Assembly (NCBI GenBank): GCA_017476005.1
Contig: JAFVEM010000046.1
Coordinates: 16,000-79,999, forward strand
DNA length: 64,000 bases
Direction of reading: 5' to 3'
DNA from: Selenomonadaceae bacterium
GTDB lineage: Bacteria > Bacillota > Negativicutes > Selenomonadales > Selenomonadaceae
In this document: positions 32,493-44,620 of the stretch, one piece after another
Layout of the letters: every line of letters begins with the position of its first letter
Position numbering within the stretch: position 1 is the first letter of the stretch
Position numbers and translations under genes: made by a program
Notes under the pieces: generated by a model
The model's database searches: none
The model's input: the letters and a program-made list of their open reading frames with translations, nothing else
Told to the model about the DNA's origin: nothing

Positions 32493-33241
32493 GCCGTCAA
32501 CCCACCGTCCACGCTCCATACCGCTCCGGTCACAAAGGAGGCTTTGGCCGAAAGAAGAAAGGCGATCGCCTCCGCCACTTCCTCCGGCCGACCGATACGC
32601 CCCATAGGGTACAGACTCTCCATGGTAGAGAGAGCCGCCGGATCCTTACCCTGCCTGAGTTGCGCCTCCGTCATGGGGGTCATGATATCCCCGGGGCAAA
32701 GGCAGTTTACGCGCACCCCAAAACGCGCCGTCTCCAGCGCCAAAGCCCGAGTAAACATCACCACTGCTCCTTTGGCGGCGCAGTAGGCAGTGCAAAAATA
32801 ATTGCCGTGCAGTCCGGCGTCCGAGGCAATGTTCACGATACTGCCCTTTCCCGTTTCCTTGAGGAGGGGCATAGCCTCCCGGCACATGAAGTAGGTACCC
32901 TTCAGGTTGACGGCCATAACGCGCTCAAAATCCTCCTCAGAGGTGTCCTCGATGGCGCCTTCGTAATAAACCCCGGCCGAATTCACCAAGGCATCCACTC
33001 CACCCATGAGGTGACGCGCCTCGAAAATCACCTTTTGGCAATCCTCCGACTGGCTCACGTCTGCCGCCGCAAAGAATACCCTGTCGCTTGCCGCGGAAGG
33101 AAATTCCCGTAGGGCGCTCTCGGCTTTGGCAAAGGAGCGTCCCACGAGGAGTACCGTTGCCCCTTGCCGGGATAGGAGTTTGGCGGTGGCCAGTCCTATC
33201 CCGGAAGTGCCGCCGGTCATAATTACGCGCTTGTTTTCCAT
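32489..33241 (-). CDS. SDR-family oxidoreductase
   Basis: [10 protein letters not shown] cofactor motif and the YCAAK catalytic motif. ATG 33241 ([11 protein letters not shown]) is preferred. Confidence 0.85.
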
Positions 33242-33290
33242 GCTTATCTCCACAATGCAAAAACCCGGGCTAACCAAGCCCGGGAAAAAA

Positions 33291-33569
33291 TTACTTACGG
33301 TTGACCGCGTCTTTCAGGAGTTTGCCGGGGCGGAAAGCCGGATTTTTACGCGCCGGCAAGTCTATCGGTTCGCCGGTAACGGGCATACGCCCTTTTCGCG
33401 CCGCAATATCTCGCACCTCAAAGGTGCCGAAACCGATGAGTTGAATTTTCTCGCCGACGGCGAGGGTTTCCTCGATAACGGTGAAAAGCCCCTTTACCGC
33501 ACTGGCCGCCTCTTTCTTGTCCAGACCCGATTTTTCCGCCACGCTGGCCACCAAATCCGTTTTCGTCAT
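33291..33569 (-). CDS. hup: HU-family DNA-binding protein
   Basis: [21 protein letters not shown]...GFGTFEVR...[11 protein letters not shown]...PAFRPGK; 92 aa. Confidence 0.95.
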
Positions 33570-33659
33570 CCGTACACATCCTCCTAATCATTACTACAGT
33601 GAAGAATGTAGCAGAAAACAAACCAAAAAGCAAGCCGAAATTTGCGTCAGCCCCTGCAT

Positions 33660-34751
33660 TTAGCCGTTTTTCCGGCAAAAATCCCCCATGAAATCAGCTA
33701 AGGCCGCGCAACCTTCGTAGGGCATGGCGTTATAGATGGAGGCGCGCATCCCCCCGACGGAGCGATGCCCCTTCACGCCGCAGAGCTTTTGCGCCTTGGC
33801 TTCGGCGACAAATTTTTTCTCCAGTTCCTCGCTGGGCAGACGGAAGGTCACGTTCATGTAAGAACGGCTATCCGGGTCGGCATGACCGCGATAAAAACCG
33901 CCGGAAGCATCTATCACGTCATAAATGAGCTTGGCCTTCTTTTGATTGCGCTCGGCCATGGCACTTAGCCCTCCCTGCTTTTTCAGCCAGGCGGCGGTCT
34001 TGCCTACCATGTAAATGCAGAAGGCCGGCGGCGTGTTGTACAGGGAGTTCTTTCTGTAAAAAGTGTCGTAGCGAAGCATGGTGGGGAGTGTCTTGGGGCT
34101 GTTTTCCAGCAAGGATTTTTTGGCAATGACCAGCACTACCCCCGCCGGGCCAAGGTTTTTTTGCACCCCGGCGTAAATGAAGTCGAATTTCTTAAAATCA
34201 AGAGGACGGGAGAGAATATCGGAGGACATATCGGCAAAGAGGGGTACGCCCTTGGTGTCCGGGATATAGTGGAACTCGGTGCCGTAGATGGTGTTGTTGT
34301 AGCAAAGATGGACATAGGCGGCCTGAGGATTTATCTTCAGTTCCTCTTGGGTGGGAATGTGCTTAAAATTAACTTCTTTGCTAGAGGCCGCAACCTCCCC
34401 CACGCCCAAAATAGCGGCTTCTTCGTAGGCTTTAGTGGCAAAACTACCGGAGAGGACGTAGCTGCCGGGATGCTCCTTGGTGGCAAAATTCATAGGGAGC
34501 ATGGCGAACTGCAAGCTGGCGCCCCCCTGAATAAACAGGACTTCGTAGTCGTCTTCCAGCCCCATGAGTTCCTTGATGTCGGCTTTGGCCTTATTATGCA
34601 CCTCGTCATATTCGGGGGCGCGGTGGCTGATTTCCAAGATAGACATACCGCTAGCGTTAAAATTCAAGAACTCCTCCTGCGCCTCACGCAAAACCTCAAG
34701 GGGCAAGGTGGAAGGCCCCGGATTAAAATTATACACGCGCTCTGCTTCCAA
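33660..34751 (-). CDS. serC: 3-phosphoserine aminotransferase
   Basis: YNFNPGPSTLP, FIQGGASLQF and YAGVQKNLGPAG (PLP lysine); 363 aa. Confidence 0.9.
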   Translation of the reverse strand: MEAERVYNFNPGPSTLPLEVLREAQEEFLNFNASGMSILEISHRAPEYDEVHNKAKADIKELMGLEDDYEVLFIQGGASLQFAMLPMNFATKEHPGSYVLSGSFATKAYEEAAILGVGEVAASSKEVNFKHIPTQEELKINPQAAYVHLCYNNTIYGTEFHYIPDTKGVPLFADMSSDILSRPLDFKKFDFIYAGVQKNLGPAGVVLVIAKKSLLENSPKTLPTMLRYDTFYRKNSLYNTPPAFCIYMVGKTAAWLKKQGGLSAMAERNQKKAKLIYDVIDASGGFYRGHADPDSRSYMNVTFRLPSEELEKKFVAEAKAQKLCGVKGHRSVGGMRASIYNAMPYEGCAALADFMGDFCRKNG

Positions 34752-34862
34752 AGAAAAAACCTCCTGTCAAGTAAAAAAAATGTACGCACCTATTATAACC
34801 GCAAAGAATGGTTTTGGCCAGCGTATTATACTCGGAAAAAGCGCTATATTTAACCACTATAT

Positions 34863-34891
34863 TTGACACCATAGCGGCGGCTGTGTACAAT
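34863..34891 (+). promoter_or_regulatory. sigma-70 promoter TTGACA-17-TACAAT
   Basis: I counted exact spacing. 47 nt upstream of the DUF4870 gene start. Confidence 0.5.
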
Positions 34892-34938
34892 ATCGTGACG
34901 TTGGAATTATATTTTGGTTTGAGAAAGAAGGACACTTT

Positions 34939-35283
34939 ATGTTAATCACCGGTAAACAAAAAGCCTTGGCGCTGGCCGCCCATATTAGCTACCTGTTCTT
35001 TGGCGTAGGCTATATATTAGTGCCGCTGGCTATTTACCTCATTTACGACGGCAAGGATCACTTCGTGGCGCTCCACGCTAAACAAGCGCTTGTCGCGCAG
35101 GCCCTTTTGGGTATAATGGGCGCAGTGGTAGCGGGGCTCACCTTGGTATTGGTGGGATTCCTTCTGTGGCCGATTATGGCTTTGCTGGGGCTTGTGTGGT
35201 TTATCGCCTCTCTATACGATTGTTTCAAGGTAATAAACGGCGAGGATTACCGCTATCCGCTGTTGGGGAGGGTGGGCGCCTAA
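34939..35283 (+). CDS. DUF4870-family small membrane protein
   Basis: 114 aa, 3-4 TM segments, with the HAKQALVAQ block. Confidence 0.65.
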   Translation: MLITGKQKALALAAHISYLFFGVGYILVPLAIYLIYDGKDHFVALHAKQALVAQALLGIMGAVVAGLTLVLVGFLLWPIMALLGLVWFIASLYDCFKVINGEDYRYPLLGRVGA

Positions 35284-35289
35284 AAGGTA

Positions 35290-35720
35290 ACGCTAAGAAC
35301 CTGTTTTCACAAGAAGATTCATGGTATCCTACAGACATGAAAACGAATGAAACAAAGCGTCAGTCGTATCCGACCGACTTGAAAGTGATGATGTGGAACT
35401 TTACTTTAAAGATTGCCCTGACAACACCAAAGTAGATCAATTCTCAACTACCGAAAAAAATGGGGGAAGAGTAGAGAAGCGCATCTGCAAGAAGGTGGAT
35501 GATGCACGTTGGCTACAGGAACGGCATGACTGGCCGGGACTGCGTAGCTTTTTCAGCATTGAACGGATTGTGACCGCAGGCGGCAAAACGACGATATGTC
35601 TCACAATCGAAGAAATGTAGCGTCAAACGGCATTTGTTGGATTGCCTGCTCAGTGATACGCGCTTGTTGAAATTGATTGCGTTTATCAAAATATAGTGAC
35701 TATTTTATGAAACGAAAGTG
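35290..35720 (+). pseudogene. decayed ISAs1-family transposase remnant with an internal deletion and frameshifts
   Basis: STTEKNGGRVEKR...WLQERHDWPGLRSFFSIERI is followed, out of frame, by the tail LDCLLSDTRLLKLIAFIKI-stop. The 3' 84 nt are repeated at 21531. Confidence 0.7.
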
Positions 35721-35800
35721 GGGTTATTATTCATGAGCGCATTGTACTCCCTCCGCTCTACGGGTACCTCCCTCCAAGAGGGAGGCTTAAGGGAAACGTG

Positions 35801-35829
35801 TTGCAGTTACCCCTAGGTCGCGTTATAAT
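35801..35829 (+). promoter_or_regulatory. sigma-70 promoter TTGCAG-17-TATAAT upstream of polC
   Basis: I counted exact spacing. The -10 element ends 42 nt before ATG 35872. Confidence 0.5.
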
Positions 35830-35871
35830 GGCGAGAGTTTTTGTTAGCAAGCGTGAAAGGATTGGCCTGTG

Positions 35872-38800
35872 ATGCGAAAGTACCGTATAGTTCCCCAAAA
35901 AGAAAACATGTTTTGGCAACTGGTGCAGGGCATGGATTTAGCCGGGGAGGAGCGGAGGCTCTTAAAGAACGCCGCCATCACCCATGTGGAGGTAACCCCC
36001 AAAACAAACCGCTGGGAGGTACTATTGCAGACCCAGGAACTTATCGGCGAGGAATTACTGACTCGCGCCGCCGGTCATATCAGGACTAAATGCGCCTTGA
36101 GCGAGGTGCTGTTTTATCAGCAGGTGGCGGACGTAGAGGCGGCGGTGGCTAAAAATTGGGCGAAGCTGGCCAAAGAAGTGGCGGATGGAAATCAAATCGT
36201 TTACTTCAGTCTGCGTCGTATGAAACCAATTGTGGAGGGTAGCCGCTTAAAACTTACCGTGGGCGGCGAGTTCAGCGGCGAAATTCTCACCAACTACGGC
36301 ATCCCGGCTTTGCTACGCAAGACCGTGAAAAAAATGCTGGGCTTTAACTGCGACGTGGAAATTGTCAGGGATTTTGTGACCTCCCCCTCCGATTTCGGCT
36401 ATGACGAGGAGCTTGCCGAACGAAATATCCCCGTATATGCCCCTCCCGTCAGTCTCAAGGAATATCAACAAGCCGTAGCGGCAGAGAAAAGCGCCGCGCC
36501 GCCTCCCCCCACTTCCCAGCCAAGCGCGCCCACGCCGCATAGCGCCCCCTTACCGACTCTCCCCGGCGCCGACGGGTTGCTTCTGGGCAAGATCTTCGGC
36601 GGCGAGGCGGTGAAAATCGAAACCATCACCGAGGAAATGAAAAACGTCGTTATCGAGGGTTTTATCGGAGACGGCGCCATGTGCGGCGTGCGCACCAATG
36701 AGTTCAAGACCGGCACGAAGCTTTTGACCTTTGCCGTGGCCGATGACACCAACGGCATCGGTTGCAAGAAATTCTTTAAGGACAAGGAAAAGGAAGAGTT
36801 CGAACGGGTAACCGGCCTTTTAAAACCCGGTATGGAAGTGCGGCTGAAAGGCTCCGTTAAATTCGACACCTACCAGAACGAATATATGTTCTTCGTAGAT
36901 AGCATCGCCCAAAAGAAGGGACAAAAACGGGAGGACAAGGCCGCCGAGAAGCGCACGGAACTCCACGCCCACACCACCATGAGCAACATGGACGGGGTGG
37001 TGTCGGTGAAAAACCTCATCAAGACTGCCGCCCGTTGGGGGCATAAGGCCATTGCCATAACGGATCACGGCGTGGTACAAGCCTTTCCCGATGCCGCCAA
37101 AGCGGTGCATGACGGTAAGCTGGACATTAAAATAATTTACGGCATGGAAGGGTACTTGGTGGGGGAGGATTATGAGCAGAAAAGAGCCAACCACATTATA
37201 TTGCTGGCGAAAAATCCCCAAGGACTGCAACATCTCTACCAACTGGTTTCCCTTTCCCACTTGAAATACCTCCACCGGCAGCCCCGGATTCCCAAGGCGC
37301 TCCTCGCCGAATACCGAGAGGGCTTAATCATCGGTTCCGCCTGCGAGGCCGGGGAGCTTATCCGCGCCATCGTGGAGGGCAGGAGCGAGGAGGAACTCTT
37401 AGAAATCGCCGCCTTCTATGATTATTTGGAAATACAGCCCATCGGCAACAACGAGTTTTTGAAACGTAGCGACAATTTCCCTGACGTGCAAACGGACGAT
37501 GATTTGCGCAACATAAATCTAAAGGTGGCCGCCCTCGCCAAAAAGCTGGGCAAAATGCTCATTGCCACCGGGGACGTGCATTTTTTGAATCCCGAAGACG
37601 CCATTTACCGCGCCATTCTCATGAAAGGAAAGGGCTACGAGGACGCGGAAATGCAAGCCCCGTTGTTTTTGCGTACCACGGAGGAAATGCTGCAGGAATT
37701 TGCCTATCTGGGAGAGGAGGAGGCTTACGCCGCCGTCGTCACCAATCCCGGCCAAATCAGCGATATGGTGGAAGTCTTAAAACCCATCCCTGACGATTTG
37801 TATTCCCCCATGATACCGGGGGCGGACGAAGAAATCAGAGAAATGTCTTACCACCGCGCCAAGGAACTTTACGGCGAAAACTTGCCGAAGGTGGTAGAAG
37901 ACAGATTAGAGCAGGAATTAAAACCCATTATCGGCCACGGTTTTTCCGTGCTGTATCTCATTTCCCAGCGGTTGGTGAAAAAATCCAACGACGACGGCTA
38001 TCTCGTAGGTTCCCGTGGGTCGGTGGGGTCTTCCTTTATCGCCACCATGACGGGCATCACCGAGGTAAATCCTCTGCCGCCTCACTGGCGCTGTCCTCAT
38101 TGTCAGTATTCCAAGTTCATTGAAGACGGCTCCTACGGTTGCGGCTATGACCTGCCGGACAGGGAATGTCCCGTGTGCGGCACAGCGCTTATAAAGGACG
38201 GCCATGATATTCCCTTCGCGGTGTTCTTGGGCTTCGACGGCGATAAGGTGCCGGATATTGACCTGAATTTCTCCGGCGAATACCAACCGCAGGCGCATAA
38301 ATATACGGAGGTGTTGTTCGGCAAAGACAACGTGTATCGCGCCGGCACCATCGCCACGGTGGCGGATAAAACCGCCTTTGGCTATGTTTTAAAATTCTAC
38401 GAGGAAAAGGGCATCAAAAAACATCGCGCTTTCATCGAGCGGATGGCGCAAGGGTGCATGGGAGTGAAGCGCACCACGGGGCAACATCCGGCTGGCATTA
38501 TGGTTGTGCCGCGAAACATGGATATACACTTCTTTACGCCGATTCAACGACCCGCCGACGACAAGACCACCACTACCATCACCACTCATTTCGATTATCA
38601 GTCCATCAGCAGTCGCTTGGTGAAACTGGATATTCTGGGACACGATGACCCCACGGTGATAAAAATGCTGGAAGACCTCACCCATCGGGATCCCAAAACC
38701 ATTCCCTTCGACGATAAAGCCACCCTTTCCATTTTTTCTTCCACCGAGGCTTTAGGAGTTACCCCGGAGGAACTGGGAGCTAACTCTGGCACCTTCGGTA

Positions 38801-39684
38801 TCCCGGAATTTCGCACGGGCTTCACCAGACAAATGATCGATGATACTCACCCCAACTGTTTCAGCGACCTCGTGCGTATTTCCGGCTTTTCTCACGGTAC
38901 CGACGTGTGGCTGGGCAACGCTCAGGAACTCATTCGCGCCGGAACCTGTACCCTGAAGGACGCAATTTCCGCTCGGGACGACATCATGATGTACCTTATT
39001 CACCACGGCATTGATCCTTTGCTCTCCTTCAAAACCATGGAGGGAGTGCGTAAAGGCAAGGGCATCAAACCGGAAGTGGTGGAAATTCTTAGACAAGGCA
39101 ACGTGCCGGAATGGTACATCGAGTCCTGCCAAAAAATAAAATATCTGTTCCCCAGAGCTCACGCCACGGCCTATGTCATGATGGCTTACCGCATCGCTTT
39201 CTGCAAGGTGCATTACCCCCTAGCCTTCTACGCCGCCTATTTTTCCATTCGCGCTGCGGAATTTGATGCCAACGTGGTAGCCCGAGGCAAAGACTATGTG
39301 GGAGAGCAAATTAAGCTCCTAGAAGCCAAGGCCAAGGAGAAAAAGCTGGATGTAAAGGACAGCGGCACCCTTATCGTGTTGCAACTGGCTTGGGAAATGT
39401 ATCTCCGGGGTTTTAAAGTGGAATACGTGGATTTGTATAAATCCGACGCGGAAAAATTCATCATTTTGGAGGATTCGCTCTTGCCCCCCTTGGCCTCGTT
39501 GGCCGGTATGGGAAACGTAGCGTCCCGAAATATTGTGGAAGCTAGGCAAGCCGGCTACTTTACCTCGGTGGATGACCTCCACAAACGCTCCGGCATTTCC
39601 AAAACCTGCGTGGAGATTCTCCGAGAACACGGCTGCCTCGACGGCATGAGCGAAAGCGATCAAATGGCTTTGTTCGGTGGGTAA
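35872..39684 (+). CDS. polC: PolC-type DNA polymerase III alpha subunit lacking the 3'-5' exonuclease insert
   Basis: Present: the PolC N-domain, OB region, PHP motifs (ELHAHTTMSNMDG, ITDHGVVQAFPDA), the PolC zinc module (HWRCPHCQY...CPVCG) and the polymerase core. The PHP halves join directly at ...IIYGMEGYLVGEDYEQKRANHIILLAKNPQGL... with no DEDD exonuclease domain. About 1270 aa. Confidence 0.85.
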   Translation: MRKYRIVPQKENMFWQLVQGMDLAGEERRLLKNAAITHVEVTPKTNRWEVLLQTQELIGEELLTRAAGHIRTKCALSEVLFYQQVADVEAAVAKNWAKLAKEVADGNQIVYFSLRRMKPIVEGSRLKLTVGGEFSGEILTNYGIPALLRKTVKKMLGFNCDVEIVRDFVTSPSDFGYDEELAERNIPVYAPPVSLKEYQQAVAAEKSAAPPPPTSQPSAPTPHSAPLPTLPGADGLLLGKIFGGEAVKIETITEEMKNVVIEGFIGDGAMCGVRTNEFKTGTKLLTFAVADDTNGIGCKKFFKDKEKEEFERVTGLLKPGMEVRLKGSVKFDTYQNEYMFFVDSIAQKKGQKREDKAAEKRTELHAHTTMSNMDGVVSVKNLIKTAARWGHKAIAITDHGVVQAFPDAAKAVHDGKLDIKIIYGMEGYLVGEDYEQKRANHIILLAKNPQGLQHLYQLVSLSHLKYLHRQPRIPKALLAEYREGLIIGSACEAGELIRAIVEGRSEEELLEIAAFYDYLEIQPIGNNEFLKRSDNFPDVQTDDDLRNINLKVAALAKKLGKMLIATGDVHFLNPEDAIYRAILMKGKGYEDAEMQAPLFLRTTEEMLQEFAYLGEEEAYAAVVTNPGQISDMVEVLKPIPDDLYSPMIPGADEEIREMSYHRAKELYGENLPKVVEDRLEQELKPIIGHGFSVLYLISQRLVKKSNDDGYLVGSRGSVGSSFIATMTGITEVNPLPPHWRCPHCQYSKFIEDGSYGCGYDLPDRECPVCGTALIKDGHDIPFAVFLGFDGDKVPDIDLNFSGEYQPQAHKYTEVLFGKDNVYRAGTIATVADKTAFGYVLKFYEEKGIKKHRAFIERMAQGCMGVKRTTGQHPAGIMVVPRNMDIHFFTPIQRPADDKTTTTITTHFDYQSISSRLVKLDILGHDDPTVIKMLEDLTHRDPKTIPFDDKATLSIFSSTEALGVTPEELGANSGTFGIPEFRTGFTRQMIDDTHPNCFSDLVRISGFSHGTDVWLGNAQELIRAGTCTLKDAISARDDIMMYLIHHGIDPLLSFKTMEGVRKGKGIKPEVVEILRQGNVPEWYIESCQKIKYLFPRAHATAYVMMAYRIAFCKVHYPLAFYAAYFSIRAAEFDANVVARGKDYVGEQIKLLEAKAKEKKLDVKDSGTLIVLQLAWEMYLRGFKVEYVDLYKSDAEKFIILEDSLLPPLASLAGMGNVASRNIVEARQAGYFTSVDDLHKRSGISKTCVEILREHGCLDGMSESDQMALFGG

Positions 39685-39695
39685 CGGGGGAAAAT

Positions 39696-40253
39696 ATGCG
39701 TTTAGTAATCGGAATTTCCGGCGCCAGCGGCGTTATCATGGGCTACGAACTGCTCAAAGTTTTGCGCGCCACCCCGGAGGTAGAAACTCATCTGGTCATA
39801 ACGGAGGGTGCCAAAAAAACTTTTTCGCTGGAAACCGGCATCTCACCGACGCAGGCGGAGGCGCTGGCGGATTTTGCCTACGACAGCGCCGACTTTGCCG
39901 CGCCCATCGCCAGCGGTTCCTTTTTAACCGCCGGTATGGTAGTAATGCCCTGTAGTATGAAAACTTTAGCTGGGATAACCGTGGGTTACGCGGAAAATTT
40001 GCTGCTCAGAGCGGCGGACGTGACTTTAAAAGAGGGGAGACCCCTAGTCTTGGTGCCTAGGGAAACGCCTCTTTCCAAATTGCACCTGCGAAATCTTAAA
40101 GAAGCGGCAGACCTAGGCGCCACCATTCTCCCCCCCATGCTGACTTTTTATAACGGTGCCGACACGGTGGAAAAACAAATCAATCACCTGCTGGGCAAAA
40201 CTCTGCGTCTTTTGGGGCTAGACATGCCCGGATTTAAATCTTGGGGCGAGTAA
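39696..40253 (+). CDS. ubiX: UbiX-type flavin prenyltransferase
   Basis: MRLVIGISGASGVIMG...MVVMPCSMKTLAGI...LVLVPRETPL; 185 aa. Confidence 0.9.
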   Translation: MRLVIGISGASGVIMGYELLKVLRATPEVETHLVITEGAKKTFSLETGISPTQAEALADFAYDSADFAAPIASGSFLTAGMVVMPCSMKTLAGITVGYAENLLLRAADVTLKEGRPLVLVPRETPLSKLHLRNLKEAADLGATILPPMLTFYNGADTVEKQINHLLGKTLRLLGLDMPGFKSWGE

Positions 40254-40369
40254 GTAAAATTTGCTTTTTGCTTGCCATGGCGGTCGTATTTGAGTAAAAT
40301 AAACAAATATGAAAGACATCTGAAAAGACAGCTGGAAAGGAAAATATTTAATCTCGGGTGGTGTATTGC

Positions 40370-43300
40370 ATGGATTCAAAGTGGAACGTGGGCATAGACA
40401 TAGGCTCAACCACCATTAAATTGGTGGTCATGGACAAGGCGAAAAATCTTGTCCACCAAAGCTATGCTCGCCACTTTTCCGAAATTGGTCGAGCTTTGCG
40501 GGAAAATTTGACCACCCTCAAAAACATCGTGGGGGGACAGAAATTTTCTTTTGCTTTGACGGGTTCTGCCGGAATGGGAGTTGCCAGCCGCTTGCGTCTG
40601 CCCTTTGTGCAGGAGGTCATGGCTTCCGCCGCCGCGGTGAAAGCCTTTATTCCCCAGACCGATACGGTGGTGGAACTGGGGGGAGAGGATGCCAAGATAA
40701 CTTACTTGGGGGACGCCCCGGAACAACGGATGAACGGCGTGTGCGCCGGAGGTACCGGCTCTTTTATCGACCACATGGCGGCTCTCCTTGCGACCGACGC
40801 TCCGGGTCTCAATGCGCTGGCGGCCAAGGGCAAACAAATTTATACCATCGCTTCCCGGTGCGGCGTTTTTGCCAAGACGGATATTCAAGCCTTGATGAAC
40901 GACGGCGCGGCCAAAGCCGACATCGCCCTGTCCATTTTTCAAGCGGTGGTAAATCAAACCATCGGCAATTTGGCGCAGGGACGCCCTATCAGCGGCAAAG
41001 TAGCTTTCTTAGGCGGCCCTTTGCATTTTCTGCCGGAGCTGAAGAAGCGTTTTATCGCCACCTTAGGGCTGACCGAGGAAAACGTGGTGCAGGTCAAGAA
41101 CGGCAATTTCTTCGTGGCCATGGGGGCGGCGCTGTCAGACGAAGCGGAGCTTATGGACGAAAAACGTCTCGACCAAAGTCTGAACGCCGCTAATGAGGAA
41201 AATCGCCGGGAAAGCAAGCCGGAGTTGGTTCTTTTTGCCGACGAAAACGAATACGCCGCTTTTAAAATCCGTCACGACCAGCATAAAGTGCCGCGAGGCG
41301 AGCTAAAAACTTATCGCGGCGCGGTGTATCTGGGCATTGATGCCGGTTCCACCACCACTAAAATCGCCGCCATCGGCGAACATAAAGAACTCTTATACAC
41401 TTCTTACGGCAGCAACCACGGTTCGCCCTTAAAAACCGTGGTAAGAGAGCTGACGGAGTTTTATCGCGTCCTGCCGCACGCAGCGCATCTAGCCGCCGTT
41501 TATACCACCGGTTACGGCGAAGCCATCGTGAAGGCGGCGCTCCATGCCGACGGCTCGGAGGTAGAAACCTTTGCCCATCTCAGGGCGGCGCAGGAATTTT
41601 GCCCCGAGGTCTCTTTTGTCATGGACATCGGCGGTCAAGACATGAAATGCTTCTTTGTGCAAGAGGGCAGCATTGGCAACATCACCTTGAATGAGGCGTG
41701 TTCCGCCGGATGCGGCTCCTTTATCGAAAATTTTGCCCAAGGTCTGCATCTCACCGCCGGAGAATTTGCGAGGCTCGCCGTGAGCGCCACAGCGCCGGTG
41801 GATTTAGGCACTCGTTGCACCGTGTTCATGAACTCCAAGGTGAAACAGGCGCAAAAAGAAGGGGCGGAAGTAGCGGATATTTCGGCTGGCATCGCTGTTT
41901 CCGTGGTGAAAAACGCCCTCTTCAAGGTCATGCAACTAAAAGACGTGGCCGAGCTGGGAGAACATATTGTAGTCCAAGGCGGCACCTTTTATAACGACGC
42001 AGTACTGCGCGCCATGGAAAAAATTCTCGGCAGGGAGGTAATTCGCCCGGACATAGCCGGTCTGATGGGCGCTTACGGCGCGGCGATTTTGGCCTGCGAG
42101 TCGGGAGCTTACGCATCAGGCTTGCTGTCGGCGGAGAAGCTGGCGGATTTTGCCGTGAAAACCGATTCATATCGCTGTAAGGGTTGCGGCAACTCTTGCC
42201 TCATTACTAGGCAAGAGTTTTCCGACGGGGGCAAATATTTTACCGGGAATCGATGCGAGCGAGGTATCGGCGGCAAAAAAACGCAGGATAACGCCACTAA
42301 CATTTACGCTTACAAGTATGAGCGGCTCTTTGTTCCCTACAAGCCGCTGGAAAATCCCCGGCGAGGGGTAATCGGCATTCCGCGTACGCTGAATATGTAC
42401 GAGGAATATCCCTTTTGGTTCACTTTCTTTAACGAGCTGGGCTATAGAGTGGAAATTTCCGGCAAATCCACGGCCAAAATGTACTGCAAGGGCATGGCCA
42501 CCGTGCCGTCGGATTCCCTTTGCTATCCGGCGAAACTCGCCCACGGGCATATCATGGATTTGGTGGAGCGTGGGATTAAGAAGATTTTCTACCCCTGCGA
42601 GCCTTATAACATGGTTGATGAAGCTCATAAAAACGCCAATCATTTCAATTGTCCCGTGGTGGCCTCCTACGCCGAAAACATTCGGGGCAACATGGACATT
42701 TTAAGAGAAAAAAATATAACCTTTATCCAGCCATTCCTCCCCATTAACGACCCTAAACGGCTGACGGAACGTCTCGTCGAAGAACTCACGGGCGAGAATC
42801 TCACCAAAAAAGAAATCGCCGCCGCCGTAGATAGAGCTTACGCGGAACTGGCGCATTATCGGGCAGACGTGCGCCGCTACGGCGAGAAGCTACTGGCGGA
42901 GCTCAATAAAGCCAACGCTCCGGCCATAATGCTGGTGGGACGGCCTTATCACATCGACCCGGAAATAAACCACGGCATCCCGGAAATGATTGCTTCCTAC
43001 GGACTGCCCATTATTTCCGAAGATGCGGTATATCATCTGCCGGTAAAAAATTACCCCTTGCAAGTGGTGAACCAGTGGAGCTATCACGCTAGGCTTTATC
43101 ATGCCGCCGAATTTGTAGCCGCCCACCCGAACATTACCCTCATTCAACTCAGCTCCTTCGGTTGCGGCCTTGACGCTATCACCACCGGGCAGGTCAAGGA
43201 AATTTTGGAATCCCGGCGGCGCATTTACACCATGATTAAATTGGACGAGGTGTCGAATTTAGGCGCGGCGCGGATTCGTTTGCGGTCTTTGCTGGCGGCG

Positions 43301-44620
43301 CTGAAAAGGCGGCAGGAAATCCCCTACCGCCCGATGGTAGCGGTAGAGCGGCCTCATTTCACCGAGGACTGCAAGGCTACCCACACGGTTTTGGTGCCGC
43401 AAATGGCGCCCATTCATTTTGAGCTTTTAAAAACCGCTATTGAAAAGTACGGCTACGTTTTGGCTATTCCTCCCATGCCGGACAAAGCGGCCATCGACCT
43501 AGGACTGCGCTATGTGAACAACGATATGTGTTACCCGGCCATAGTGGTCATCGGGCAACTGATTGCCGCCTTGCGTTCGGGAAAATACGACGTAAACCAC
43601 ACGTCCATCATGCTCTTTCAGACCTGCGGCGCCTGTCGCGCCACCAATTATTTGGGGGTACTGAGGCAAGCCTTAAAATACGCCGGTTACGGTCAGGTGC
43701 CGGTCTTTGCTTGCCGGGGACTGCCGGAGGAGACAGACTCCTTTAAATTAAATCCCTCCATGTTGGCGGATGTCATTAAAGCCGCCGTCTATGGGGATCT
43801 GTTGATGAACGTCAAAAATCGGATGCTCCCTTACGAAACAATACGCGGCGAAACTCAGCGGCTATTTGACAAGTGGCTGGAAAAGAGCAAGGCCGAATTG
43901 CAAGATGGCAATTACTTTAAATTCCGCCGCAACATTAAACAAGCGGTGCGAGAATTTGATAATTTACCCATCGACGATACCCGGTGGAAACCGAAAGTGG
44001 GGGTGGTGGGAGAAATTTTGGTGAAATATCATCCGGTAGCCAACAACCGCTTGGAAGAAGTGTTGCTGAAGGAAGGCGCCGAGGTGGTGATGCCGGATTT
44101 CGTTGATTTCTTCCTCTATGCGGCTTACGATGCCGTAGCCGGTCATCGACTTTTGGCCGGTTCCCTGAAGGACAAACTTTTCGCCAAAATGTTTATCCGC
44201 TTCATGGAATTTTTCCGCGCCCCCATGCGGCACGCCTTGACAGCCAGCCGCCATTTTCGGTCGCCTCAAGACATCGCCGCCACAGCCAAAATGGCCGAGC
44301 GGCATGTGAGTCTGGGGAATATGGCCGGCGAGGGCTGGTTCCTCACCGGGGAAATGGTGAAGCTCATCGAAGAAGGAGTTCCCAATGTGGTGTGCTTGCA
44401 GCCCTTCGGGTGTTTGCCCAATCACATCACCGGCAAAGGCGTTATGCACGAGTTGCGCGCCCACTATCATCAGGCCAACATCGTGGCCATTGACTGCGAT
44501 GCCGGTTCCAGCGAAGTTAATCAGCTGAATCGCATCAAACTTATGTTGGCGGTGGCTAAAGATAAGCAACCGGCAGAGGCAGAAGGGGAGGCCAGCTATG
44601 GCAGAGTACAAACCTTATAA
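40370..44620 (+). CDS. fusion of two BcrAD/BadFG/HgdC-type ATPase (activase) domains with 2-hydroxyacyl-CoA-dehydratase-like domains
   Basis: Acetate/sugar-kinase-fold starts occur twice (VGIDIGSTTIKLVV and LGIDAGSTTTKIAA), followed by Cys-rich dehydratase-like C-terminal halves. ATG 40370 follows GGGTGG by 8 nt. Confidence 0.75.
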   Translation: MDSKWNVGIDIGSTTIKLVVMDKAKNLVHQSYARHFSEIGRALRENLTTLKNIVGGQKFSFALTGSAGMGVASRLRLPFVQEVMASAAAVKAFIPQTDTVVELGGEDAKITYLGDAPEQRMNGVCAGGTGSFIDHMAALLATDAPGLNALAAKGKQIYTIASRCGVFAKTDIQALMNDGAAKADIALSIFQAVVNQTIGNLAQGRPISGKVAFLGGPLHFLPELKKRFIATLGLTEENVVQVKNGNFFVAMGAALSDEAELMDEKRLDQSLNAANEENRRESKPELVLFADENEYAAFKIRHDQHKVPRGELKTYRGAVYLGIDAGSTTTKIAAIGEHKELLYTSYGSNHGSPLKTVVRELTEFYRVLPHAAHLAAVYTTGYGEAIVKAALHADGSEVETFAHLRAAQEFCPEVSFVMDIGGQDMKCFFVQEGSIGNITLNEACSAGCGSFIENFAQGLHLTAGEFARLAVSATAPVDLGTRCTVFMNSKVKQAQKEGAEVADISAGIAVSVVKNALFKVMQLKDVAELGEHIVVQGGTFYNDAVLRAMEKILGREVIRPDIAGLMGAYGAAILACESGAYASGLLSAEKLADFAVKTDSYRCKGCGNSCLITRQEFSDGGKYFTGNRCERGIGGKKTQDNATNIYAYKYERLFVPYKPLENPRRGVIGIPRTLNMYEEYPFWFTFFNELGYRVEISGKSTAKMYCKGMATVPSDSLCYPAKLAHGHIMDLVERGIKKIFYPCEPYNMVDEAHKNANHFNCPVVASYAENIRGNMDILREKNITFIQPFLPINDPKRLTERLVEELTGENLTKKEIAAAVDRAYAELAHYRADVRRYGEKLLAELNKANAPAIMLVGRPYHIDPEINHGIPEMIASYGLPIISEDAVYHLPVKNYPLQVVNQWSYHARLYHAAEFVAAHPNITLIQLSSFGCGLDAITTGQVKEILESRRRIYTMIKLDEVSNLGAARIRLRSLLAALKRRQEIPYRPMVAVERPHFTEDCKATHTVLVPQMAPIHFELLKTAIEKYGYVLAIPPMPDKAAIDLGLRYVNNDMCYPAIVVIGQLIAALRSGKYDVNHTSIMLFQTCGACRATNYLGVLRQALKYAGYGQVPVFACRGLPEETDSFKLNPSMLADVIKAAVYGDLLMNVKNRMLPYETIRGETQRLFDKWLEKSKAELQDGNYFKFRRNIKQAVREFDNLPIDDTRWKPKVGVVGEILVKYHPVANNRLEEVLLKEGAEVVMPDFVDFFLYAAYDAVAGHRLLAGSLKDKLFAKMFIRFMEFFRAPMRHALTASRHFRSPQDIAATAKMAERHVSLGNMAGEGWFLTGEMVKLIEEGVPNVVCLQPFGCLPNHITGKGVMHELRAHYHQANIVAIDCDAGSSEVNQLNRIKLMLAVAKDKQPAEAEGEASYGRVQTL

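Follow-up and report, generated by a model that had tools for sequence, protein, structure and literature searches.

The window analysed here is a stretch of 64,000 nucleotides from one contig of a Selenomonadaceae bacterium of the rumen or gut. Its subject is a gene for PolC, the textbook replicase with a built-in DnaQ-type proofreader, which in this case lacks the proofreading exonuclease (Exo). The polC open reading frame (ORF) at 35869-39684 on the forward strand is a single uninterrupted frame of 1271 amino acids (aa) with a GTG start; position 35872 is an ATG, the codon right after this GTG. Identity as PolC was judged by the curated equivalog cut-offs of the NCBIfam models NF001688 (873 bits) and TIGR01405 (1043.45 bits), both of which the protein exceeded with 1493.2 and 1377.6 bits, respectively. 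The alignment with NF001688 was split into two stretches, the second of which paired residues 433-1269 with model positions 607-1444 (of 1445). The Exo part of the model, i.e. the region between both stretches that ends at position 606, was skipped.

PF00929 (RNase_T), the profile of the DEDDh exonuclease family, did not match the window PolC even at E ≤ 1. When the protein was aligned with the full-length PolC 9QPC, query residues 179-433 corresponded to chain residues 188-431 and query residues 431-1269 to chain residues 630-1471; about 198 residues of 9QPC were without a counterpart. The engineered delta-Exo PolC of Geobacillus kaustophilus (3F2B) aligned in a single collinear stretch (query 249-1271, chain 9-1032). 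Between the PHP ligands E427 and H442 of the window PolC there are 14 residues, GYLVGEDYEQKRAN. These data bear out, in all details that could be checked, a first-pass annotation of the locus, which had stated that Exo is cleanly absent and that the two halves of the PHP domain are joined directly near nucleotides 37145-37200 (the junction E427...H442 is at 37147-37194), and which had pointed to the delta-Exo Geobacillus construct as an example of such a protein that folds. The PF00929 profile search and the alignment to canonical PolC (9QPC, 3F2B), which had been proposed there as checks, gave the same answer.

Pfam assigned residues 364-517 to the PHP domain, 655-924 to the polymerase III alpha core, 927-1064 to the fingers and 1181-1263 to the helix-hairpin-helix (HhH) module. 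The matches for NI, NII and the OB fold within residues 17-346 were weak, those of PF14480 and PF11490 being under the gathering scores. Pfam and motif positions agreed with the earlier assignment of an N-domain, an OB region, a PHP domain, a CPHC...CPVC zinc module and a polymerase core (Table 1). The window PolC was alignable over its full length, N-terminal domains included, to PolCs of Selenomonadaceae; with remoter relatives the alignment began only at about residue 215-240.

Table 1. Features of the polC gene and stand-alone exonuclease genes of the same genome. Positions are those of the window unless stated otherwise.
Feature	Position	Strand	Evidence or remark
polC, PolC-type DNA polymerase III alpha subunit without Exo insertion	35869..39684	+	ORF of 1271 aa; NF001688, TIGR01405
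PolC NI and NII domains, residues 17-166	35917..36366	+	PF14480, E 2.7e-4; PF11490, E 4.1e-4
Low-complexity linker, Pro/Ala/Ser-rich, from N-terminal domains to OB fold, ~residues 196-236	36454..36576	+	translation
OB region	36700..36906	+	PF01336, E 4.5e-4; aligns with OB region of 3F2B from residue 249
PHP domain, contiguous, ~residues 364-640, nine metal ligands	36958..37788	+	Pfam PHP, 116.6 bits; alignment with 2HPI
Junction loop E427-GYLVGEDYEQKRAN-H442	37147..37194	+	position of the ~200-aa DEDDh exonuclease in canonical PolC
Polymerase core (palm, thumb, fingers), residues 655-1064	37831..39060	+	PF07733, 192.8 bits; PF17657, 76.2 bits
Zinc module CPHC...CPVC, PolC-specific, residues 742-770	38092..38178	+	motifs; aligns with module of 3F2B
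Tandem HhH DNA-binding module, residues 1181-1263	39409..39657	+	PF14579, 42 bits
Clamp-binding motif QMALF (QxxLF consensus), C-terminal, residues 1265-1269	39661..39675	+	translation
DnaQ-like DEDDh exonuclease, stand-alone, 191 aa	contig C46:2093-2662 (= L002:1480-2055), outside the window	-	motifs
KapD-like DEDDh exonuclease, 222 aa	contig C14		motifs visible in translation

The catalytic motifs PDIDLNF (residues 795-801) and GHDD (924-927) are present in the window PolC, as are the cysteine pairs of the zinc module, CPHC at 742 and CPVC at 767. Among the relatives PDIDLNF was found in 116 of 116 and GHDD in 115 of 116 sequences, and the CxxC pairs of the zinc module are conserved. The C-terminal QxxLF of PolC is a sliding-clamp-binding motif (PMC3919608); the eight commonest variants listed for the Negativicutes relatives all carry Q-x-x-L-F at their C-terminus. 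The window PolC is a genuine, single-copy and, as predicted from its motifs, catalytically competent replicase.

A search of the source genome (2.7 Mb in 76 contigs, 93.6% complete) returned one PolC, encoded by the window gene, and one DnaE. The latter has 1151 aa, scored 1600 bits with NF005298, has its C-terminal domain (CTD) and by inspection carries the PHP ligand set HHDHEHCDH together with an internal clamp-type motif, QMGLF. By the motif criteria of a 2026 survey of PolC proofreaders in Nucleic Acids Research (NAR; PMC12926913) its sequence is DnaE1-type. The check for a second polC, dnaE or dnaQ, which had also been advised, thus gave no other polC, one dnaE1-type gene and two stand-alone DEDDh genes. 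The idea of a second, specialised PolC paralogue had to be dropped: there is one polC in the genome, and no genome sampled from the class has a PolC other than the Exo-less form. We likewise rejected a second polC or a decaying paralogue as candidates, because the search of the own genome gave only the window PolC and one DnaE and because the catalytic motifs are conserved.

The nearest relatives in public genomes belong to Selenomonas, Mitsuokella, Anaerovibrio and Schwartzia (Selenomonadaceae) with 59-76% identity over the full length. Each of the 40 nearest genomes yielded one PolC match that covered at most about 3.9 kb of DNA; full-length frames had about 1210-1330 aa. The class was sampled by 201 Negativicutes genomes from 31 families and 75 genera. 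polC was present in 201/201, and every one of the 150 PolC matches listed began at model position 602-615, just past the Exo region; the open frames of the listed matches were 1085-1350 aa long. From the class 118 PolCs were extracted, including one representative from each of 27 other families. In all 116 that were correctly framed, 12-32 residues lie between the flanking PHP ligands, with 14 as the commonest number. The loop of the window PolC recurs nearly unchanged in isolates, for example S. ruminantium ATCC 12561, S. bovis DSM 23594 and A. lipolyticus LB2005. Whether relatives share the deletion had been another check of the first-pass annotation: all PolC matches listed from the 201 genomes are Exo-less. 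The Exo deletion is fixed throughout the sampled class Negativicutes.

A missing domain may in principle be an artefact of assembly or annotation, or a sign of a decaying paralogue. Here this is virtually impossible, and nothing was found in its favour. The 3.8-kb frame is open, the window PolC is the sole polC of its genome and all catalytic motifs are conserved. Moreover, the short junction recurs in 118 independent Negativicutes assemblies, isolates and complete chromosomes among them, which excludes an assembly artefact. We regard it as practically certain that the DEDDh exonuclease is naturally absent from the window PolC, that its absence is fixed across the sampled class and that the gene shares its genome with a DnaE1-type polymerase.

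The PHP domain of the window PolC has nine metal ligands, H366, H368, D375, H400, E427, H442, C492, D569 and H571 (HHDHEHCDH), which in an alignment matched Thermus aquaticus Pol III alpha (2HPI) position by position. The PHP-inactivated construct 3E0D differs from wild-type 2HPI by exchanges of D to N at the equivalents of D375 and D569. The window PolC reads GDVHF, whereas Geobacillus PolC (3F2B) and 9QPC read GNVHY, with N at the eighth ligand position. An 'active' PHP domain has been described by the motif HHDHEH[C/H]DH (PMC12926913). HHDHEHCDH was found in 116 of the 118 extracted Negativicutes frames. The remaining two, L042 and L056, were considered as PHP-degenerate PolCs and rejected as shadow frames; in the correct frame the PHP motifs LHAHT, TDHG, GMEGY, GSAC and DVHFL are all there. 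Thus the PHP ligand set is complete in 118/118 Negativicutes PolCs. In another Negativicute, Sporomusa ovata, the PHP ligands of PolC1 have likewise been noted as complete (PMC4632017).

Residues 352-660 of the window PolC were modelled by AlphaFold2 with 33 homologues. The model had a predicted local distance difference test (pLDDT) score of 91.1 and a predicted TM-score (pTM) of 0.88. At the junction it shows a strand (residues 70-80 in model numbering), a loop and a second strand (90-96), the block 81-90 having a mean pLDDT of 89. The best Foldseek hits of the model were PHP domains of PolC, 9QRL with a query TM-score (TMq) of 0.90 and 3F2B with 0.83, followed by PHP domains of DnaE1 at 0.72-0.75. 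The PHP barrel of the window PolC is predicted with high confidence to be intact.

As the most likely mechanism, which we hold with somewhat better than even confidence, the PHP domain of the Exo-less PolC would proofread in cis. The lineage has deleted the DnaQ-like DEDDh insert from the PHP domain, leaving the 14-residue loop between E427 and H442. The trinuclear metal centre of the PHP domain (HHDHEHCDH), the same set as in the PHP exonuclease of M. tuberculosis DnaE1 and Thermus Pol III alpha, would be the proofreader. A mispaired primer 3' end would be passed from the polymerase site to this metal centre within the same polypeptide and no DnaQ-type partner would be required. The DnaE1 of this genome, with its equally intact PHP motif, would proofread its own products likewise. 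The PHP centre is the only candidate proofreader conserved wherever Exo is missing, because stand-alone exonucleases do not follow the trait. In Clostridium thermocellum the PolC mutation C669Y alone led to a genome-wide mutator phenotype of about 30-fold (bioRxiv 10.1101/2021.07.30.454558). C669 is the metal-binding cysteine of the PHP domain and corresponds to C492 of the window PolC. By analogy the mutant may be taken as independent but indirect in vivo support for PHP proofreading in PolC.

The first-pass annotation had offered either the PHP domain or a separate DnaQ-like protein as proofreader. These were the right alternatives to weigh, but no conserved DnaQ-like partner was found. A stand-alone DnaQ-like DEDDh exonuclease, i.e. 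the 191-aa or the 222-aa protein of this genome, might proofread in trans as epsilon does on alpha of E. coli. Both genes exist, and DEDDh motifs are visible in both translations. The 191-aa gene lies between argH and der (engA), upstream of der, and its product has intact motifs (FDTETTG, NVKFDLRML, HGALADTKA); its top NCBIfam models are of the epsilon family (NF004964, 60 bits; TIGR00573, 48.7 bits), all hits being below the cut-offs. In addition, many Negativicutes carry an exonuclease of about 186 aa that is like the N-terminal half of PRK06195, and in the pair DnaE3/PolC of B. subtilis one C-family polymerase is proofread in trans by the exonuclease of the other (PMC12926913). Yet no single exonuclease family is distributed like the Exo-less state, which is universal. 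Of 40 relatives only about 7 have a clear orthologue of the 191-aa gene, the PRK06195-like family was not found in this assembly, and one relative (G026, 99% complete) was without any PF00929 match. The 191-aa protein is little more than a bare exonuclease domain and has no C-terminal docking tail. KapD-type enzymes are, to our knowledge, not components of the replisome. A stand-alone DEDDh exonuclease family conserved across the class was not found in the relatives searched. Proofreading in trans by one of these proteins seems unlikely.

The 191-aa and 222-aa proteins were also considered as the excised Exo of PolC. This was ruled out, as the Exo region of the PolC models gave them only 31-37 bits and models of epsilon or KapD gave higher scores. 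ORFs of about 186 aa with PF00929 matches occur in many Negativicutes families, and the eight that were fetched (L130-L137) are all PRK06195-like. This exonuclease family, which begins with MNFVAIDFETAN..., corresponds to the N-terminal half of NF004844/PRK06195 and reached about 226 bits where the cut-off is 373. An example of the gene is L132:2019-2579 (+); in L130, L132, L133 and L137 it adjoins a conserved gene of about 160-170 aa.

The relation between Exo and the PHP domain was examined across PolC. An exhaustive HMMER search of 1.84 billion representative proteins (50% identity) gave 150 PolC clusters, and 135 near-full-length clusters plus the window PolC were classified according to the length of the insert, the DEDDh columns and the PHP motif. 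With an active Exo (n = 97) the PHP motif was intact in 53 and degenerate in 44. Where the insert was present with degenerate DEDDh residues (n = 15), PHP was intact in 14 and degenerate in one, an N-terminally truncated sequence. Without Exo (n = 24) the motif was intact in 23 and degenerate in one, P0116. The raw association of Exo absence with an intact PHP motif has a Fisher p of about 9e-5.

A FastTree phylogeny of the PolC representatives was calculated from alignment columns outside the insert. The Negativicutes PolCs formed one clade with a Shimodaira-Hasegawa-like support of 99, comprising 29 rows, all of them Exo-less. Outside the Negativicutes, Exo-less sequences were scattered as sisters of Exo-containing clostridial-type PolCs, and at least 17 changes of the Exo state are needed on the tree. 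This scatter among Exo-containing sisters and the number of changes indicate repeated secondary deletion of Exo, not an ancestral Exo-less state, as judged from the tree.

The intermediate group deserves separate mention. Clostridial-type PolCs with an eroded Exo (P0016, P0018, P0025, P0038, P0042, P0054, P0064, P0086, P0106, P0111, P0125 and P0141) have kept an insert of 140-290 aa and lost DEDDh residues, with the PHP motif intact in all. P0083 and P0122 were also flagged as eroded, although nothing except the H column is missing from them (DEDQD, DED-D), and may be mis-scored; some of the other eroded-Exo calls may reflect misalignment of the insert.

Several points weigh against PHP proofreading in cis. 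Of 15 phylogenetically independent contrasts only 2-3 showed a difference in the PHP state; its direction was the expected one each time, and the result was not significant. The PHP-intact state is common also in Exo-containing clostridial-type PolCs, and the association between Exo and PHP is therefore largely shared lineage background, not compensation. P0116 is an Exo-less representative with a degenerate PHP motif, HRSLENSDQ. The genome encodes two stand-alone DEDDh exonucleases with complete motifs. In the literature we found no biochemistry for any Exo-less PolC. Intact PHP ligands are necessary, not sufficient, for exonuclease activity, and PHP metal sites may be structural or serve another activity. 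A pyrophosphatase activity, for example, has reportedly been claimed for E. coli DnaE.

P0116 has 1178 aa and a linker of 11 aa and is sister to P0068, which is Exo-active and PHP-degenerate. Possibly it represents an additional paralogue, comparable to the copy that Timinskas et al. (NAR 2014; PMC3919608) mention for Thermotogae.

From the comparison of sequences we favor a modest statement, namely that loss of Exo is tolerated on a PHP-intact background. This background is permissive, and compensation is not claimed. A wider claim is that Negativicutes and many independent clostridial lineages rely for proofreading only on the ancestral metal centre of the PHP domain, and that Exo can be lost or eroded into an insert without motifs only where PHP is intact ('never neither' rule). 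We are evenly divided over it. The rule has about 1 exception among 38 scorable representative clusters without an active Exo. If it is true, both proofreaders would be interchangeable in one scaffold, and the Negativicutes enzyme would be the first case of a PolC with demonstrated PHP proofreading.

The need for a proofreader in PolC would be smaller if DnaE1 copied most of the chromosome and the Exo-less PolC were a specialised or minor polymerase. Timinskas et al. raised this for organisms with PolC plus DnaE1; every Exo-less PolC of their survey is in a genome with this pair, and which of both is the main replicase was asked (PMC3919608). The DnaE of our genome is a full DnaE1-type (1600 bits with NF005298) with HHDHEHCDH and the internal QMGLF. 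On the other hand, PolC was kept in 201/201 genomes with invariant catalytic motifs, zinc module, clamp motif and PHP ligands; PolC is therefore strongly selected, which argues for a high-fidelity role. Likewise, the PHP-ligand mutant of C. thermocellum is a genome-wide mutator of about 30-fold, from which it follows that much of the DNA is made by PolC in at least one organism with PolC and DnaE1. A dominant DnaE1 is thus improbable, and it would be compatible with PHP proofreading and not exclude it.

Finally, the PolC of this lineage might have no proofreading at all, with fidelity resulting from nucleotide selectivity plus mismatch repair by MutS/MutL. A MutS1 orthologue is present in the genome (997 bits), and the delta-Exo Geobacillus PolC (3F2B) is stable and crystallisable. 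However, the nine PHP ligands are invariant over 31 families, yet degenerate in 44/97 Exo-active PolCs; an idle site would leave this invariance without an explanation. Furthermore, we know of no free-living bacterium without replicative proofreading. We consider a replicase that does not proofread very unlikely, and PHP proofreading in cis remains the view we favor.

The surroundings of polC are as follows. The non-coding gap of about 0.6 kb upstream contains a short ORF fragment at 35393-35620 (+), ...WLQERHDWPGLRSFFSIERIV..., which resembles the C-terminal end of an ISAs1-family transposase. The fragment is downstream of a 114-aa membrane-protein ORF at 34939-35283 and a divergent 363-aa ORF at 33660-34751 (-); the latter looks by eye like serC. 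Downstream of polC (39696-44620, +) a 185-aa gene begins after 11 nucleotides and is followed by an ORF of 1420 aa. Judged by eye, the product of the former resembles a UbiX-like flavin prenyltransferase and that of the latter an activase-like plus dehydratase-like fusion of the 2-hydroxyacyl-CoA dehydratase type. The genes after polC do not represent the classical polC neighbourhood. A scan of 33000-40500 with Rfam for regulatory RNA near polC gave no match.

PolC is the target of new antibiotics against Gram-positive bacteria such as ibezapolstat. Veillonella, Selenomonas, Megasphaera and their relatives are abundant in the gut, the mouth and the rumen, and the whole class to which they belong uses an Exo-less PolC. 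The choice of the proofreader affects mutation rates and replisome evolution in Negativicutes and may affect the behaviour of PolC inhibitors and nucleoside analogues in these bacteria.

The first-pass annotation had implied novelty, which cannot be upheld. Timinskas et al. surveyed about 2000 genomes and found 6% of the PolCs to be without the Exo insertion, exclusively in Clostridia and Negativicutes except for one extra copy in Thermotogae (PMC3919608). The Exo-less PolC has thus been a catalogued variant since 2014, and the window protein is an ordinary case of it. The locus is one more example, not a new phenomenon, and the sequence-level fact was already published. Our additions are the class-wide Exo-less state (201 genomes, 31 families), the single Negativicutes clade and the many losses and erosions outside the class.

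Compared with this Exo-less variant (PMC3919608) the window PolC shows no substantive difference. Both have the same order of N-terminal domain, OB, PHP, Pol3 and HhH without an Exo insertion, a Negativicute host, DnaE1 and not DnaE3 as partner, and a conserved PHP metal site. Canonical PolC (3F2B, 9QPC, B. subtilis) shares the domain order, the zinc module, the catalytic aspartates and the C-terminal clamp motif with the window PolC. It differs by its DEDDh exonuclease of about 200 aa, which is absent from the window PolC, and by DnaE3 as partner instead of DnaE1. Furthermore, 3F2B and 9QPC have N in G(D/N)VH(F/Y), whereas the window PolC with D569 has the complete 'active' PHP motif.

The alpha-epsilon pair of E. 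coli combines a polymerase that has no DEDDh domain with small DEDDh exonucleases in the genome, and the same is seen in the genome of the window. However, epsilon docks on the PHP site of E. coli alpha, which is degenerate, in contrast to the intact PHP site of the window PolC in a lineage across which no DEDDh family is conserved. M. tuberculosis DnaE1 (5LEW, 7PU7; PMC5636811) and Thermus Pol III alpha (2HPI) are DnaE-type polymerases with OB and CTD after the polymerase core and without a zinc module, whereas the scaffold of the window protein is that of PolC. Exonuclease activity has been demonstrated for both of them, while for the window PolC we only infer it. All three have no DnaQ domain in the polypeptide, and they share the ligand set HHDHEHCDH in a contiguous PHP barrel.

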